IMG/VR virus record: IMGVR_UViG_2681813146_000002
From: a virus
Taxonomy: Duplodnaviria; Heunggongvirae; Uroviricota; Caudoviricetes
Reading direction: 5' to 3' (one strand)
DNA: 47,946 nucleotides
In this document: positions 13,350-33,150 of the stretch, piece by piece
How positions within the stretch are numbered: the stretch's first letter is position 1
Layout of the letters: each line of letters starts with the position of its first letter
Made by a program: the position numbers and the translations under genes
The notes under the pieces: model-generated
Databases searched by the model: none
What the model was told of the DNA's origin: nothing
Seen by the model: the letters and a program-made list of their open reading frames with translations, nothing else

Positions 13350-13446
13350 TCTTGCGACATCCACGGAAAACCAACAACCAATTAACCATGGGCGCCTCGA
13401 CAACTCCCATTATACGTTGGTTTTCCGTGGACGCAAGAGCGAACAT

Positions 13447-14295
13447 ATGGATAGACCAATGCCGTCTCTACGTTCCGCTTACGTTTGTAATTTGTCGCCG
13501 GAGTTCCAGCCTCCAAAGCACCATACGCACAAGCTGCCGCTGGTGTTATCTGATGCTTTACAGCGCATTAATGGGCGTGATCTTACGTGTGAGGTTGCGT
13601 TCTACGTTAATCAACCGTCAGAGCGGAAGCGTCGGATAAACGAGCATCGTCGTCGGGCGATTAATGCTGTGATTGCTGCGATTTTGCACCATGTAAACAT
13701 CATTTCTAAGCGGGTTCTGGCCAGTGCTGAGGCGTTGGCTGATTTTTGCGGCCTGTCTACCGTATCCGAAGCTGGGAACAAGTCTATAACACGCTGTACA
13801 AGGGCGTTGTCGCAACTGAAAGCGTTAGGTTTTATTGATTATGAACGTCGCTGGGATCGGGTGAATAAACAGTATTGGCCAGCGAAAATAGAGATTCGTG
13901 ATCAACTGCTGGAAACCGTTGGTATTACTGAACAAGCATGGAGACGTGCGGTTAGCCAGAAACTTAATTACTTCAATGCGAAGAATAGCGAACGGCTTAA
14001 AAAAGCGATAACGGAGGCTGATTATAAGCGTATTGTTATTCAGGAGCAGATGGAGAATGTATGGCGTCAGAGGAAGACGGCCAGAGAGATAAAGGCAAAA
14101 CAGAAAGCAGCGGAGAGAGCTGCGCGTCTTGTTCGGGAAAAGGGAGAGGCCGAACTTCGTCATCAAATCACTAGAGAGGTTAGCCAGGAATTTGCTGATG
14201 GCATGTATCCTGGAGCTGACCTTGCATATTTACGATCCCTCGTTGAGCAGCGTTATAACAGGTTAAGAAAGACCTGGAAATCACTCCAACATTAA
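13447..14295 (+). CDS. repA: Plasmid replication initiator, IncFII RepA1-like
   Basis: The segment SITRCTRALSQLKALGFIDYERRWD and the basic C-terminus resemble IncFII RepA1 as I recall it. Start is uncertain: TTG 13417, ATG 13447 or ATG 13459. Confidence 0.6.
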   Translation: MDRPMPSLRSAYVCNLSPEFQPPKHHTHKLPLVLSDALQRINGRDLTCEVAFYVNQPSERKRRINEHRRRAINAVIAAILHHVNIISKRVLASAEALADFCGLSTVSEAGNKSITRCTRALSQLKALGFIDYERRWDRVNKQYWPAKIEIRDQLLETVGITEQAWRRAVSQKLNYFNAKNSERLKKAITEADYKRIVIQEQMENVWRQRKTAREIKAKQKAAERAARLVREKGEAELRHQITREVSQEFADGMYPGADLAYLRSLVEQRYNRLRKTWKSLQH

Positions 14296-14436: not shown

Positions 14437-14445
14437 TTATCCACA
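14437..14445 (+). promoter_or_regulatory. DnaA box TTATCCACA in the candidate origin downstream of repA
   Basis: Exact consensus 9-mer about 140 bp after the repA stop, in an AT-rich noncoding stretch. Confidence 0.5.
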
Positions 14446-16450: not shown

Positions 16451-16568
16451 CATAGAATTATATAATTATAGATTTATATAAAAAAGCGCTTTACGGGTGG
16501 GAAAAAATTTCCTAAGGTTATACCCGAAACCGAGCGATACCCGCCCTGGTTAAACCGGAGATAACCCG
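16451..16568 (+). promoter_or_regulatory. Conserved promoter/operator/leader cassette, copy A
   Basis: AT-rich palindrome, then TTTACG-N17-TAAGGT, then leader CCGAAACCGAGCGATACCCGCCCTGGTTAAACCGGAGATAACCCG before the ATG. Near-identical to copies at 25843 and 33034. Confidence 0.55.
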
Positions 16569-16949: not shown

Positions 16950-17012
16950 ACACAATGCGCAAAGTGTCATTTTGACACTTTGCGAGTGTTAATATTGTGC
17001 GAGGAGGGTGCT

Positions 17013-17285
17013 ATGACGGGTTATGAATTGAAATTATGGCGTCGTGGGATGAACTGGACGCAGGAGCGAGCCGCCGAAGAATTTGGGATATCGTTGGCTA
17101 CATATAAGCGATATGAGAAGGGGGAGCCGCCGAGGGTCATTGAGATGGCCATTCGCGTTCTGTCGTTTGACGATATGGTTAAGGATCTTTCACACCTTGA
17201 TAAAGATGCGATTCTGTTAAGGCTGCAAACCCTTGTATGGGAAAAGGTTAAAGTGTCGTCAGAATTGGAACAAGGGATCAAATGA
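17013..17285 (+). CDS. XRE-family HTH protein
   Basis: HTH WTQERAAEEFGISLATYKRYE. Start ATG 17013 after GAGGAGG. Confidence 0.5.
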   Translation: MTGYELKLWRRGMNWTQERAAEEFGISLATYKRYEKGEPPRVIEMAIRVLSFDDMVKDLSHLDKDAILLRLQTLVWEKVKVSSELEQGIK

Positions 17286-17336
17286 TCCTTTACGGATCGT
17301 TTTATGGTGGTGTAATGTAAGCGCCAGAAAGACAAA

Positions 17337-17360
17337 AACCGCCTTGCCGGGCGGTTTTCA
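17337..17360 (+). terminator. Rho-independent terminator
   Basis: AACCGCCTTGCCGGGCGGTTTT hairpin with a T-run. Confidence 0.55.
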
Positions 17361-17920
17361 GTCTGAAATTTAAATCTTGCTTGGTAGGCTGGATTTAAAA
17401 AGACACCTCTTGATTGGGGCGGCTTTCTTGCGTCTAAAGATAATCAAATCTTTTTGCGCCTGCAACCCCTTTTTTACTGGTGCCTGTTTCAGACTCACGC
17501 TCGCGTCGTTGTCTTTGCCACTTCGTTGGGTTCGGTGTTTTTGGGCGAAGTGGCGCGCGGGTATGCGTACAAGGGGAAAGTGTGCTGACGCAAGCCAGGA
17601 ACAGCGATCTAAACTAAGTCGAGTCTGAGAAAGGCAGGAGTGCGACAACTCGCCTGTGCTCTATGAGCAGAAGAAGGTATATCAGACGACCAATGGCATG
17701 ATTGTGGGCCACAGGGCGCACACGGCGGCGAAGCATTGGAAACGATGTGGAGCTATCTGGTGGCATGAGTTCCGGTACTCGATCTCGAGCTTTTTTTGAT
17801 GCTTTTGAGAAGGGGCCGGAACTCCGGTAAAGGGCACCCTGTATGGGGGGAGGGGGGGTTGTGTCTTAAGGAAGATCTAATACGATATTGCTTTACCCTT
17901 ATATCTAAAAGGAGATTTCT

Positions 17921-18556
17921 ATGGGGATGCTGGTGGCGTTTATTATTAGCCTGATTTTGTGTTTCTTCGTAGTTCGTGGCGCATATCGGAAACAATGTGC
18001 CTCGTCTTCTGGTGGTAAGTTCAAAGCTGTTTTAGTGAGTGGCTTTCTCGGGATTGCAACTTTTGTAGTTGTTAATACTCTTGCGGCTGTGACCTTGATC
18101 CCAGAAGACTCCAACACTGCGGCTACTACCGGAGCTGCTTTTGATGGTGTGACCGTAGATAAGTTTAAGAGGTTATATAATGATGACCTTGAAGGCATCG
18201 CTACATCAGGAAAAGCCACCTCCCCTATAAGAATTAAGTCAGTTAAACAAGGTAACAACACCGTTGAATTTGCCATCAATTCATCTGTTAACGGTCGAGC
18301 TAGAGTTGATAAGGATGGGAAGATTTCAGAGTTATTATGGCGAGTATCTAAGCCTAGCTCTGATTCCTTGCTTTCTATGGCCGTAGCTGTTGAAGTCTTG
18401 GATGCATCAAGTGATAGAGACACAGTGATCGCGCAGTTAGAGCAGATTGTTAAATCTGATACGCAGAAAGCTGAGTTTAAGACTAAGAGAGGCGAGTATT
18501 ACGTTTCTCGTGACAAATCAGGGCACGTGTCGCTACTGATTACACCGAAATATTAA
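17921..18556 (+). CDS. Membrane-anchored protein, candidate superinfection-exclusion or moron product
   Basis: 211 aa with two N-terminal hydrophobic helices and a Ser/Thr-rich soluble domain. Flanked by terminators. Confidence 0.4.
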   Translation: MGMLVAFIISLILCFFVVRGAYRKQCASSSGGKFKAVLVSGFLGIATFVVVNTLAAVTLIPEDSNTAATTGAAFDGVTVDKFKRLYNDDLEGIATSGKATSPIRIKSVKQGNNTVEFAINSSVNGRARVDKDGKISELLWRVSKPSSDSLLSMAVAVEVLDASSDRDTVIAQLEQIVKSDTQKAEFKTKRGEYYVSRDKSGHVSLLITPKY

Positions 18557-18566
18557 GAATTGAAGA

Positions 18567-18594
18567 AGCGCCCAAATCGGGCGCTTTGTTTTAT
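18567..18594. terminator. Bidirectional terminator between convergent genes
   Basis: AGCGCCCAAATCGGGCGCT hairpin with flanking T/A runs. Confidence 0.55.
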
Positions 18595-19733
18595 GGTTTT
18601 GCACCTGCGGCCAGTTTATCCGCAGATATCTTTATCAGTTCCTGTAGTGTCCTGGCTGGTAGGTTTGCATCCAGTACGCTGAGTATGCTGTTGTGATCTG
18701 CCTGGTCGACTACTTTGCCTGTCGGTGGTAGTAGCTTGAGCTGAGGATTCAGGTTTTCGTCAAAGCTGATCAGTGCTCTGGCGTTTCTGAGCAGATCAAG
18801 AAGTAAGGCTGATATCACATTTTCCTGAGTCATTGCTGGCAGATTTAGCGCCGCTTTGGTTTTCCCTGTTGCCTTGTCAAACTCCTTGATTAGTTTCTTC
18901 CTGTAGTTCGGTTCCGTTAATAGCCGATTATGCTCTGTTGCCGCGCGGATAATCGTTTTTTCCTGGTACAGTCGTTTAGCCAGATCACGCTCGTACTGTG
19001 TTTTTAACACGCTGCTGATAGCGTTAAAGGCTTCAATGTAGGCCAGCTTGATATCTTTCACGCCTGGACCGTCGATACTCTCCATGAGCAAGGTAAATCC
19101 GTCTTTTGTCATGCGATAGATTGTTATTTCGCGGTCGCTTCCTTCCAACGGTCGTTGCTCTTTAAAGAAATGACGCGCCGCAGCTGTGCGAGGAATGCGT
19201 AACGCATCGATGGCCATAACGATGGAATTGTTTGTGGTGCTGAATGCTTGGGCAACATCGGCTGAGGTTGTGAGTGGCTCGTTATTGCACACCTTAATGT
19301 AAAACATCGGTTTGGCGTTGAGCGTATCGACAACCTCACGAGCATTGTTTGGCGAGACGGTTACGGTCGCGGCCGTTTGCGCGTTCTGGTTGAAGTAGCA
19401 GTCTTCCAGCCGTTCGAATACATCCCACGCCTGATCGGTTTCGAGCATTTTAGCGTGACGTGCAGCCCCGCGTTCGGTCCAGAGAATTAGGGAGCGGGCA
19501 TTTTTACCAACTAACCCGATTGTTTCGGGTCTGTTCTTGAACTCGCGTAATTCGTTTTTTTCAATTTTAAAGTAATGCTTTCCGGCTACGAATCGCGTCG
19601 TGTTGTTCAGAAAGTTATCAGAAATGTTTTTGATTTTTGTTCCGTATAACTGCGCCAGAAGTTCACTAGTGATAACGGGGATCTGGTTATGCAGGATAGG
19701 CTGTAGGGTGTTAACGGTCGGAAGCGTTTTCAT
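18591..19733 (-). CDS. Antirepressor, Rha-family N-terminal domain with KilAC-like C-terminal region
   Basis: 380 aa. N-terminal region resembles phage regulatory protein Rha by recollection. Confidence 0.55.
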   Translation of the reverse strand: MKTLPTVNTLQPILHNQIPVITSELLAQLYGTKIKNISDNFLNNTTRFVAGKHYFKIEKNELREFKNRPETIGLVGKNARSLILWTERGAARHAKMLETDQAWDVFERLEDCYFNQNAQTAATVTVSPNNAREVVDTLNAKPMFYIKVCNNEPLTTSADVAQAFSTTNNSIVMAIDALRIPRTAAARHFFKEQRPLEGSDREITIYRMTKDGFTLLMESIDGPGVKDIKLAYIEAFNAISSVLKTQYERDLAKRLYQEKTIIRAATEHNRLLTEPNYRKKLIKEFDKATGKTKAALNLPAMTQENVISALLLDLLRNARALISFDENLNPQLKLLPPTGKVVDQADHNSILSVLDANLPARTLQELIKISADKLAAGAKP

Positions 19734-19921
19734 TTTGCACCTCCCATAACTACTTTGGTTACGAGGGAGATTTTTGCGTCAGAAACAGCGTTATCGTTGC
19801 TGGCGATGCGCATAGCTTCGCGCTCGATGATTTCAGCCAGGCGGAATTTATCGGCGTATGAGGCTTTCTTGAGAAGGATCTTTACGAGGTTGACGTAATA
19901 GTCATGGGGTAGGTTTGTCAT
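19730..19921 (-). CDS. Small protein upstream of and coupled to the antirepressor
   Basis: Start taken at the internal ATG after GGAG; the longer ORF extends to 19957. Stop overlaps the antirepressor start. Confidence 0.35.
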   Translation of the reverse strand: MTNLPHDYYVNLVKILLKKASYADKFRLAEIIEREAMRIASNDNAVSDAKISLVTKVVMGGAK

Positions 19922-20215
19922 TGTGATATCTCCAGTATATGGAACTATCACCGCCATTCGAGGCTAATCAAATGGTGGTGAGCCGTACAGGGTTAGCCTT
20001 ACCGGACACAATGACGAACCGGCGCGGATTTCTCCGCCCCTGTACGACCCACCATAATTTGGGCGTAACAGTGCTCTACGCATAAAAAAACCGCTAACGC
20101 GGTATGCGCCATCGTGTTATTCAGGAGGCTAATCCCGGCCGTAGATTTTGCTACGGCTCGGAAAGTGTCCACCAATGGCGCATTTATGTCAATACGGCGG
20201 GATTTTAACAGAGAC

Positions 20216-20232: not shown

Positions 20233-20674
20233 TTATTGGTAGGCAGAAACAAAAAAACCGCCCTATTGAGGACGGTTCTTTCGTGCTGATCGGATTCGCG
20301 GTCCTTTCAGCATTACGTTGTTGTATAAACAACCACGCAAGCACAAGCAGCAAGTTAATTTTACCCAAAAGGTAATAATAGTCCACTATTATGCTTCATA
20401 AAATTGTGGTTCTTGTTGTGCCTGCAAACTCACAGATTGTGGGTAGGTTACTGATTTTGTGAAAATAAACGAGTTTTTTCGTTTAATTTCTTTCCTATAA
20501 CTAATCTTAAAATAATCGTAAAATACCTGTGGACCTTCCCGCCGATTCGCACCCGGGCACCGACTTTAGGGGAGGATTCTCCGTTGCCGTACATGCAAGC
20601 ACAAGCAGCCGTGCTTGCTCTCGCGTTGTTTTCGTCGGTGGGGATGCCGTGAAACGGCCTGTAAGGGCCATACA

Positions 20675-20797
20675 ATGAAAAAATACTGTATGTGTATTTT
20701 TATCGTTGTTACTGGAGCTTTGTTTACGCCACATGGGGAGGGTTGGAAGATTACTGATAACGCTCTGAATGTGACGATAAACATTAGCAGCAAGTAG
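20675..20797 (+). CDS. Small hydrophobic peptide (40 aa), candidate membrane toxin or moron peptide
   Basis: MKKYCMCIFIVVTGALFTPHGEGWKITDNALNVTINISSK after an AAGGG ribosome-binding site, followed at once by a strong terminator. No Hok motif. Confidence 0.3.
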   Translation: MKKYCMCIFIVVTGALFTPHGEGWKITDNALNVTINISSK

Positions 20798-20802
20798 CGA
20801 TT

Positions 20803-20826
20803 AGGCCCCTTCGGGGGCCTTTTTTA
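20803..20826 (+). terminator. Rho-independent terminator
   Basis: AGGCCCCTTCGGGGGCCT hairpin followed by TTTTTT. Confidence 0.65.
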
Positions 20827-32450: not shown

Positions 32451-33038
32451 ATGGAGGCAATTGCATTGTTTAATCTGATTTATGCAGATCCCCCCTGGGA
32501 ATACAAAGACAAGTGTAAGGATGGGAATCGTGGCGCTGGTTTTAAGTATCCAACGATGAAAGCTGAGGATATTGCTCGTATTCCTGTCTGGCAGCTTGCT
32601 AATCCTGAATCGTGTTTGTTGGCCATGTGGTGGGTTCCGACTCAGCCAGAAGAAGCGTTGCTGGTGGTGAAAGCATGGGGATTCAGGCTGATGACCATGA
32701 AGGGCTTCACATGGAACAAATGTGGTAGCCGACAACCAGATAAGCTGGTGATGGGGATGGGGCATATGACTCGTGCAAACAGTGAAGATTGCTTGTTTGC
32801 GGTAAAAGGCAAACTGCCGACCCGCCTTGATGCGGGGATCATTCAGTCGTTTACATCGCCTCGTCTGGAGCATTCTCGGAAGCCTGATGTGGTTCGTGAC
32901 AAGCTGGTAAGGCTGTTAGGTGATGTTCCCCGTATTGAGCTGTTTGCTCGCGGTGATTTACCTGATGGCTGGCATGGCTGGGGCAACCAGTGCAATGGAG
33001 GTATCCAGTTGCATGATGCTCTCTGGCAAGTGGCATAG
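32451..33038 (+). CDS. MT-A70-family N6-adenine DNA methyltransferase
   Basis: DPPW catalytic motif in LIYADPPWEY. Size 195 aa. Confidence 0.65.
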   Translation: MEAIALFNLIYADPPWEYKDKCKDGNRGAGFKYPTMKAEDIARIPVWQLANPESCLLAMWWVPTQPEEALLVVKAWGFRLMTMKGFTWNKCGSRQPDKLVMGMGHMTRANSEDCLFAVKGKLPTRLDAGIIQSFTSPRLEHSRKPDVVRDKLVRLLGDVPRIELFARGDLPDGWHGWGNQCNGGIQLHDALWQVA

Positions 33039-33150
33039 AATTATATAATTATATATTTATATAAAAAGCGCTTTACAGGTGGGAAAAAATTTCCTATGGT
33101 TATACCCGAAACCGAGCGATACCCGCCCTGGTTAAACCGGAGATAACCCG
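33034..33150 (+). promoter_or_regulatory. Conserved promoter/operator/leader cassette, copy C
   Basis: Near-identical to copies A and B (TATGGT in place of TAAGGT). Begins at the methyltransferase stop codon. Confidence 0.55.

Follow-up and report, generated by a model that had tools for sequence, protein, structure and literature searches.

What is encoded in the long noncoding stretch that precedes a membrane protein gene in an enterobacterial phage-plasmid? The question is raised by a 47,946-nt DNA of a tailed phage (Caudoviricetes; IMG/VR record IMGVR_UViG_2681813146_000002), referred to here in its whole length as the window. It contains, as originally predicted, a + strand open reading frame (ORF) for a 211-amino-acid (aa) protein. 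The original prediction took this protein for a terminator-insulated superinfection-exclusion moron and described the ~560 bp upstream as unusual noncoding sequence. Our analysis indicates that the part of the locus worth following is the noncoding block, and that the ORF is an optional, fast-evolving passenger. The unusual stretch is real, with limits other than those first drawn: it begins inside the 3′ end of a small helix-turn-helix (HTH) gene, at ~17222, and ends at ~17871. We present this block, which is new and unannotated, as a candidate large structured RNA of a common E. coli phage-plasmid.

The window represents a complete phage-plasmid of ~48 kb. From end to end it matches circular plasmids of ~48 kb, which are present in 72 of 5,426 complete E. 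coli genomes; one of them is the 48.5-kb plasmid of E. coli ATCC 25922. Further matches are the Yersinia phages vB_YpM_39, 41 and 44 and the induced coliphages vB_EcoM-613R2 and vB_EcoM-473R2. The gene complement of annotated relatives includes an IncFII-type RepA, ParA, a RelE/HigB-type toxin-antitoxin pair, a P1-like immI region (C4 RNA, isrK and an ORF6N+Rha antirepressor), lambda-like head genes, a contractile tail and an invertible tail-fibre segment. This gene content therefore identifies the window as a phage-plasmid and places the locus within its maintenance and immunity region. The pSLy3 group is a different family, related to SSU5.

Distant family members were gathered through the neighbouring 90-aa HTH protein and by motif scans. 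Relatives from Salmonella, Citrobacter, Klebsiella aerogenes, Yokenella and metagenomes yielded 21 distinct copies of the block and three further metagenomic variants. As expected of a functional structured noncoding RNA, the block is conserved above the neighbouring coding sequence. Specifically, the first 586 bases after the HTH gene are 98.6–99.5% identical in all 72 E. coli plasmids (megablast), and between genera the block retains 85–89% identity, compared with 67–75% nucleotide identity for the adjacent HTH gene and 69–81% for repA, the toxin-antitoxin pair, ant and parA. A 100-nt sliding comparison gives 85–94% identity exactly over the block versus 50–84% in its flanks, with a collapse to below 50% immediately 3′ of ~17871. 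The HTH gene lies immediately upstream in every copy, and the left edge of the block falls inside its last ~60 nt. The block has a GC content of 50% and its core, which is also G-rich, of 55%, compared with 44% for the whole element. A 47-nt stretch within it is identical in every distinct copy, and the G-run described in the original prediction is confirmed as a G6AG7 run that ends 13 nt before the 3′ edge and reads G6AG8 in ATCC 25922, whose plasmid (NZ_CP009073) carries the block at ~16975–17624.

Some variation in architecture was also seen. The metagenomic copy L062 (250–789) has a clean 50-nt internal deletion that removes the 17517–17554 hairpin region, and the metagenomic copy L069 (2418–2987) has a clean 22-nt internal deletion at ~17617–17638. 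Furthermore, a direct repeat, CC(T/C)TGTATGGG, stands near both ends of the block (17231–17241 and 17837–17847, 606 nt apart), and each of its copies is able to form a small CCC/GGG hairpin.

The original prediction found no convincing ORF upstream of the membrane protein gene, and this is borne out, with no match of the intergenic ORFs on either strand to Pfam, PHROG, NCBIfam or PADLOC. The + strand ORFs of the block are interrupted by frame-breaking indels in relatives. On the − strand, a 50-codon ORF is intact in every distinct copy; its differences are spread evenly across codon positions, and its ratio of nonsynonymous to synonymous changes, ~3:1, equals the neutral expectation. The survival of this ORF thus appears, from the pattern of substitutions, to reflect nucleotide conservation and not protein selection. 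On these grounds (no family matches, broken + frames and a neutral − strand ORF), a hidden protein gene or pseudogene in the block was rejected.

The predicted fold of the block is strand-asymmetric. The RNAalifold consensus for eight diverse copies reaches −161.8 kcal/mol with a favourable covariation term on the + strand, versus −113.4 kcal/mol with an unfavourable covariation term on the − strand, and the z-scores of the core after column shuffling within conservation classes are −4.4 (+) and −3.7 (−). The strands differ because changes that preserve pairing through G-U become mismatches on the opposite strand; the few single-nucleotide polymorphisms in stems among the E. coli copies are mostly G-U-compatible, and on the + strand only. 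In the 21-copy alignment, 99.4% of the cells of the 171 predicted pairs are standard pairs, versus 42–47% with slid partners. Both partners change in 7 pairs, concentrated in two hairpins, and one-sided changes that keep pairing, mostly through G-U, occur in ~26 pairs. The observed covariation score was reached by none of 500 shuffles, a comparison that carries the tool's warning that related sequences can beat such shuffles. Compensatory changes and strand-specific G-U tolerance, the signs of a noncoding RNA, are thus both present, at shallow depth and with most helices showing no variation; a helix that never varies is evidence neither for nor against that helix.

Compensatory changes are found in several independent states in the hairpin at 17517–17554. 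Its stem occurs as GCCACUUCG/CGAAGUGGC, GCUACUUCG/CGAAGUGGC, GCCACUUCG/CGGAGUGGC, GCUGUCUCG/CGAGAUAGC, GCUGUCUCG/CGAGGUAGC, GCUAUCUCG/CGAGAUCGC and GCUUCUCCG/CGGACGGGC, a set that includes G-U intermediates. A second, six-bp hairpin, capped by an invariant GNRA tetraloop, is represented by five pairing-preserving stems (GCAUUG/CGAUGU, GCAUUG/CAAUGU, GUGCUG/CGGCGC, GUGUUG/CGGCAC and GUACUG/CGGUAC) and by two further variants with A-A or A-G mismatches. The short palindromes of the original prediction, CTCGATCTCGAG at 17778 and CCGGAACTCCGG at 17816, are present, and both are taken in by a third, long hairpin, in which five pairs vary on one side only, always by changes that preserve pairing (G-U, A-U or G-C). 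The predicted core (~17462–17862) is multi-branched, with nested long-range helices and a sub-domain of ~100 nt at 17604–17705, and its ~400 nt are predicted to be closed by pairing between a C4U6 tract and the G-run region; the tract is invariant, so that no covariation is possible there.

The block corresponds to no RNA family in the models searched. In the whole window, Rfam 15 at the gathering score identifies only ryfA, C4, isrK and a tRNA, all outside the block, and at E ≤ 10 the block in the window and in two divergent homologues returns only noise of 11–25 bits; the families covered include GOLLD, ROOL, HEARO, group I and II introns, RNase P, tmRNA, 6S, CsrB and riboswitches. The recurrent noise match is RNAI (RF00106), at 15–20 bits versus a threshold of 47 bits, which is driven by a terminator hairpin and falls on inconsistent strands. 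No RefSeq annotation covers the block in the 72 E. coli plasmids, and nothing about the region was found in the literature on the Yersinia phages, phage-plasmid noncoding RNAs or the ATCC 25922 plasmid. The block shows no above-chance complementarity to the rest of the window that would indicate an antisense target within the element. A role as a CsrA sponge was rejected, since GGA motifs, judged by eye, are not enriched.

Further homologues were sought at a distance. Among loci with distant HTH homologues, 24 genome loci and one further locus were searched with nhmmer; none holds a homologue of the block, and all are conjugative-plasmid contexts with sok or CopA. Scans for exact motifs in IMG/VR and metagenomes recovered only copies at least 88% identical and chance matches, and no more came from distant-mode blastn against phages, plasmids and E. 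coli genomes. The family is most likely confined, judging from these searches, to one lineage of 47–50-kb enterobacterial phage-plasmids. In form, the block resembles GOLLD, ROOL and HEARO/omega-RNA: it is several hundred nt long and multi-helical, with an invariant interior and covarying peripheral stems, it lies on a temperate phage or mobile element, and it is not tied to one neighbouring protein gene. Unlike those RNAs, it matches none of their Rfam models at any threshold, is limited to a single lineage in the Enterobacteriaceae, and ends in the G6AG7 run followed by a cargo slot, with no associated nuclease or tRNA cluster. GOLLD and ROOL are counted among the large structured noncoding RNAs of phages and mobile elements that have no known function, as was HEARO/omega-RNA until its role was found.

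Comparison of relatives reveals a polymorphic slot directly behind the block. Depending on the lineage, the block is followed by a gene for a membrane protein of 211–218 aa, by a gene for a protein of 62–70 aa, or by a terminator alone. The ORF of the window is present in 15 of the 72 E. coli plasmids, and elsewhere other cassettes or none stand at the same point. In ATCC 25922 and the Yersinia phages the alternative cassette encodes the unannotated 62–70-aa protein (MMRRKASLLQAIGSIISLFPAVDHF...; 4560–4748 in L005 and 8614–8799 in L002), and in L004, L040, L052–L054 and L062 an intrinsic terminator, AAAGGGGCCGAAGCCCCTTTT, lies ~10 nt 3′ of the block. Since relatives keep the block with a terminator and without a cassette, the RNA would stand alone and the ORF would be a cargo gene. 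Consensus scans found no promoter-like site between the block and the start codon (17860–17920), and the ORF would therefore be co-transcribed with the block RNA in the window.

Three sources of such a transcript can be proposed. A weak candidate promoter at 17289–17318 would start RNA at ~17323, just before a terminator-like hairpin, and the sole variable patch of its stretch (17304–17307) falls in the spacer. An invariant −10-like hexamer, GATAAT, could direct an alternative start at ~17451; it lacks a good −35 element and has an A/T-rich tract (17392–17402) at the distance of an UP element. Read-through from the promoter of the HTH gene is an equally possible third source.

Taken as a whole, we judge it somewhat better than an even chance that the locus comprises a stand-alone gene for a structured RNA of a new family and, between this RNA and its terminator, a slot for cargo. 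The block would encode a G-rich, multi-helix RNA of ~0.42–0.55 kb on the + strand, with its core closed by pairing of the C4U6 tract with the G6AG7 region. Peripheral hairpins that vary in a compensatory manner, a GNRA cap and long invariant internal stretches are typical of partner-binding RNAs with a defined tertiary structure, and the GNRA loop and invariant interior of the block suggest such a fold here. The RNA would probably act in trans, through a partner that it binds. The slot would be empty or would hold either the 62–70-aa gene or the 211–218-aa membrane protein gene, and in the window the RNA transcript would run on through the ORF and end at the terminator shared with the converging antirepressor gene. 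The membrane protein would be cargo of the lysogenic-conversion or exclusion type.

Several points weigh against the stand-alone RNA gene. Consensus scans detected no consensus σ70 promoter for the block RNA on the + strand, and the terminator-like hairpin at 17334–17358 separates the core from the upstream promoters. A single alignment served both to derive the structure and to score it, which makes the score support and not proof. The phylogeny is shallow (one lineage, at least 85% identity), with true double-sided covariation in two helices only. The outer helix shifts with the chosen boundaries: when the 5′ flank is added, the RNAalifold partner of the G-run becomes 17404–17412. In addition, a competing pairing of 17476–17496 with 17621–17641 also has one compensatory pair. 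The internal deletions in the two metagenomic copies may be tolerated variants, decay or assembly errors. Finally, that the RNA acts in trans, as a protein-binding scaffold or decoy made from the resident plasmid prophage, is a guess.

A bolder form of the stand-alone RNA gene, which we regard as possible and doubtful, is a new class of large, tertiary-structured phage-plasmid RNA with an activity of its own, either as a ribonucleoprotein or decoy in lysogeny control or phage-host conflict, or through an R-loop or hybrid G-quadruplex at its G6AG7 end, which would prime lytic replication or drive the exchange of cassettes at the junction.

An unlikely alternative is that the block acts in cis, as a long structured 5′ untranslated region (UTR) that controls, stabilises or times the cassette behind it and has no function of its own; the C4U6/G-run pairing could, for example, serve as a translational or thermal switch. 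Such a leader accords with an ORF that has no promoter of its own and must be co-transcribed with the block, with a block that ends 50 nt from the start codon, with the Shine-Dalgarno-like GGAGG in the G-run that is predicted to pair with the U/C-rich tract, and with a cassette insertion point that is always the same. It does not account for the intact and equally conserved block that is followed by a terminator, without the ORF, in at least four lineages. The cassette has its own Shine-Dalgarno (SD) sequence 50 nt further on, a 400-nt invariant-cored fold far exceeds the needs of known leaders, and the conservation of the block is far above that of any cassette behind it.

The G-run raises another possibility, which we consider very unlikely: a pre-primer resembling ColE1 RNA II, whose G6AG7 run would form a persistent RNA-DNA hybrid or hybrid G-quadruplex and thereby prime DNA synthesis, at a second origin that may be lytic, or promote recombination at the cassette junction. 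ColE1 RNA II is 555 nt long, and the distance from ~17323 to the G-run is ~540 nt. The run is unique in the window and invariant, lies on the non-template strand and marks the 3′ edge of conservation, which is the cassette junction. Furthermore, a weak promoter-like pair on the − strand (TTGCAG, 17464–17459, and TATCTT, 17441–17436), together with the terminator at 17334–17358, whose better U-run is on that strand, could yield an antisense RNA of ~105 nt, and weak RNAI (RF00106) matches recur at the block. The block thus shares with the RNA II/RNA I system a plasmid-borne, structured candidate transcript of ~0.5 kb with a G-rich end and a terminator at which an antisense RNA against the 5′ end could stop. 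It shows no resemblance in sequence to plasmids of the ColE1 type: of 72,556 PLSDB plasmids, blastn (word size 11) returned only the 62 phage-plasmids of the same family. The RNAI matches are terminator-driven, far below threshold and vary in strand from one homologue to another. The element already possesses a RepA replicon with a DnaA box (14437), the sequence 3′ of the G-run is variable, leaving no conserved primosome site and no conserved sequence after the putative RNA-DNA switch, and cassette-less relatives end the RNA at an ordinary terminator. GC skew is positive throughout the window, with no switch anywhere, and is uninformative. A plasmid origin within the block was likewise rejected, because the DnaA box and the noncoding gap by repA place oriR elsewhere and no iterons are present.

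The form of the G-run has a further parallel in conserved sequence block II (CSB II) of human mitochondria, in which a G-run-A-G-run forms an RNA-DNA hybrid G-quadruplex and ends primer transcripts. The two have in common the G6AG7–8 form, the G-run in the RNA or non-template strand and a 3′ transcript end. The likeness is one of sequence form only, with any polymerase stop or hybrid at the block being hypothetical; in contrast to CSB II, the block belongs to a bacterial phage-plasmid with an unrelated polymerase, and in relatives an ordinary intrinsic terminator follows.

The original view, that the locus is a self-contained superinfection-exclusion moron with 560 bp of promoter or spacer upstream, now appears highly improbable. 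The protein does have two N-terminal membrane helices, as predicted: hydrophobic stretches lie at about residues 1–21 and 36–60, and AlphaFold2 models helices over 2–28 and 33–58. The loop between the helices is positively charged, which predicts a periplasmic location for both the N-terminus and the 150-aa C-terminal domain; thus, the envelope location expected of an exclusion protein is a prediction from two hydrophobic helices and a positive loop. The C-terminal part contains 19% Ser+Thr and is in this sense the Ser/Thr-rich domain that had been described, but it is modelled as a well-folded alpha/beta domain, probably periplasmic, with no low-complexity tract (predicted local distance difference test score, pLDDT, ~90, versus 78 for the whole model).

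Homologues of the protein are few: 8 clusters were recovered from 5.8 billion sequences and an exhaustive profile search yielded 7 representatives, in both cases from this phage-plasmid lineage only. Their identity between genera is 42–56% (aa), marking a fast-evolving protein. The protein matches phrog_23465, a PHROG without known function, and has no match in Pfam, NCBIfam or PADLOC. A tblastn search of 50,697 phage records gave no match, and Foldseek of the AlphaFold2 model against PDB and BFVD gave no informative fold match. Remote homology and fold searches thus provided no tie to any characterised exclusion protein (Sim, SieA, gp15, Imm, Cor or Llp).

Moron or superinfection-exclusion membrane proteins of temperate phages include P1 Sim, P22 SieA, HK97 gp15 and T4 Imm. 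The locus shares with these a small membrane or periplasmic protein that adjoins immunity genes, varies by presence and absence among collinear relatives and diverges fast, and a GC content (43% in the ORF, 29% in its leader) below that of the adjacent block. To this extent the description as a moron holds. It fails on the promoter, because a terminator follows the ORF but no σ70-like promoter lies between block and start codon; the ORF would ride on the transcript of a conserved candidate RNA gene. The insulation by terminators holds in part: hairpins are present on both sides, and the upstream one is 560 nt away and has its better U-run on the − strand. Nor is the upstream region merely a promoter, since it is the most conserved and most constrained part of the locus and is kept, with a terminator, where the ORF is absent. 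Divergence, envelope location and presence/absence fit an accessory function directed against other phages or at the host surface, and the place of the gene next to the immunity region agrees with accessory or lysogenic-conversion cargo; superinfection exclusion by the 211-aa protein is a guess.

Least probable of all is a double-stranded DNA site (a packaging site, a recombination or resolution site, or a large operator) conserved through protein-DNA contacts, which could draw on a palindrome with three GATC sites at 17275–17298 reminiscent of one arm of P1 pac, on the direct repeats near both block ends (17231 and 17837) and on a half-site at 17250 common to the HTH operator, but would leave unexplained substitutions that are G-U-compatible on the + strand and A-C on the other and compensatory stem changes not required of such sites, in a core with no iterons or repeated boxes and over 650 bp of near-uniform constraint, which is unusual for a binding region.

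The coordinates of the features of the locus are collected in Table 1.

Table 1. Features in and around the conserved block (positions in the window)
Feature	Position	Strand	Basis or remark
Perfect 12+12 palindrome, CGCAAAGTGTCA ttt TGACACTTTGCG	16958–16984		
90-aa HTH_3/XRE-type regulator (phrog_6962; weak RstR-like match)	17013–17285	+	Family searches
Conserved block, candidate structured-RNA gene	17222–17871	+	Cross-genus comparison
Palindrome GGATCAaaTGATCC across the HTH stop codon	17275–17298		
Weak candidate promoter, TTTACG-N18-TAATGT (or N16-TGTAAT)	17289–17318	+	Putative; below the consensus-scan threshold
Bidirectional terminator-type hairpin, AAAAACCGCC ttgccg GGCGGTTTT	17334–17358		Nearly invariant
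GATAAT, −10-like hexamer	17439–17444	+	Putative; invariant
C4U6 tract, GCAACCCCUUUUUU	17462–17475	+	Predicted pairing with G-run region 17849–17862
Hairpin with compensatory changes	17517–17554	+	Several independent states
Invariant 47-nt stretch, GGGTATGCGTACAAGGGGAAAGTGTGCTGACGCAAGCCAGGAACAGC	17559–17605	+	Identical in 21 of 21 distinct copies
50-codon ATG ORF (MPPDSS...)	17614–17766	−	Intact in 21 of 21 copies; treated as non-coding
Six-bp hairpin, invariant GAAA (GNRA) tetraloop	17733–17748	+	Covariation
Long hairpin, GAGUUCCGGUACUCGAUCUCGA ... UUGAGAAGGGGCCGGAACUC	17767–17824	+	Consensus fold
G6AG7 run, GGGGGGAGGGGGGG	17845–17858	+	Unique in the window; 0.09 chance matches expected (≤2 mismatches)
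Cassette-specific leader, AT-rich (29% GC)	17872–17920	+	Comparison of relatives; SD AGGAG at 17910–17914
Accessory gene, 211-aa protein with two transmembrane helices	17921–18556	+	SD AGGAG at 17910–17914
Intrinsic terminator, back-to-back with the converging antirepressor gene	18565–18587		Would end the RNA+ORF transcript
ORF6N+Rha antirepressor, last gene of the P1-like immI operon	18591–19733	−	Family search
C4 antisense RNA	19971–20059	−	Rfam, gathering score
isrK	20084–20157	−	Rfam, gathering score

Upstream of the block, the perfect palindrome in front of the HTH gene overlaps a TTGACA hexamer (16972–16977) and lies upstream of TGtTAATAT (16987–16995), a probable operator and promoter of the small HTH gene, judging by these motifs. 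The half-site of this operator, AAAGTGTC, occurs six times in the window versus 1.7 expected; one of these copies falls within the conserved block (17250) and another beside isrK (20162). Three GATC (Dam) sites are clustered around the HTH stop codon (17276, 17284 and 17295), and two of the three are invariant. The first ~140 nt of the block (17222–17363) form the 3′ end of the HTH mRNA, with three stem-loops, of which the last is the terminator (z = −3.0), and exceed the coding part of the HTH gene in conservation. By position and fold, they could alternatively be a 3′-UTR-type small RNA of the HTH transcript. CpxQ and SroC are 3′-UTR-derived small RNAs, and the likeness lies in the three stem-loops ending in a terminator; such an RNA would, unlike the stand-alone RNA gene, explain only the first fifth of the block, and its stretch is invariant.

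Downstream, the neighbour is the ORF6N+Rha antirepressor gene, as originally predicted. C4 and isrK lie upstream of a small ORF (19730–19957; 75 aa, and 63 aa in annotated relatives) and the antirepressor, and this P1/P7-type immI operon converges on the locus of the block and the ORF. A hairpin upstream of the operon (20244–20263) and the terminator at 17334–17358 have a common motif, CAGAAA(G/C)A(C)AAAAACCGCC. The immunity region also contains a full-length match to ryfA RNA (142 bits; 20529–20825, +), a position held in the closest annotated relative, L001, by a gene for a 190-aa HTH protein, and thus another swappable slot.

On the maintenance side, the sole perfect DnaA box in the window, TTATCCACA (14437–14445), lies just 3′ of repA (13417–14295) in a noncoding gap of ~280–480 bp, depending on which downstream ORF is real; this gap is presumably oriR. 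An AT-rich 30-nt sequence, ATAGAATTATATAATTATAGATTTATATAA, occurs twice in the window with one mismatch (16452–16481 and 33035–33064). In the relatives from Salmonella and Citrobacter it is also found near parA, in inverted orientation. A shared operator or promoter is one possible reading of it, a partition-related site another. In the relative L050, an IS200/IS605-type element (Y1 transposase and TnpB; 19–1670) lies upstream of the toxin-antitoxin genes.

Large structured RNAs are a rarity, and those known come mostly from organisms that are difficult to handle. The candidate described here is accessible, in an E. coli plasmid prophage that is carried by the quality-control strain ATCC 25922 among others, and in the isolated phages vB_YpM_39, 41 and 44. 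In no fewer than 72 complete RefSeq plasmids of E. coli, and in elements of Salmonella, Citrobacter, Klebsiella and Yokenella, it fills a 600-bp gap in the annotation. If the RNA is real, accessory genes of this family ride on the transcript of an RNA gene and not on promoters of their own, which would change the reading of such "morons". If the G-run forms R-loops, it would bear on the switch of phage-plasmids between plasmid and lytic replication. An activity as a ribonucleoprotein or decoy, or through an R-loop or hybrid G-quadruplex, would, if true, constitute a mechanism not described for temperate E. coli phages.

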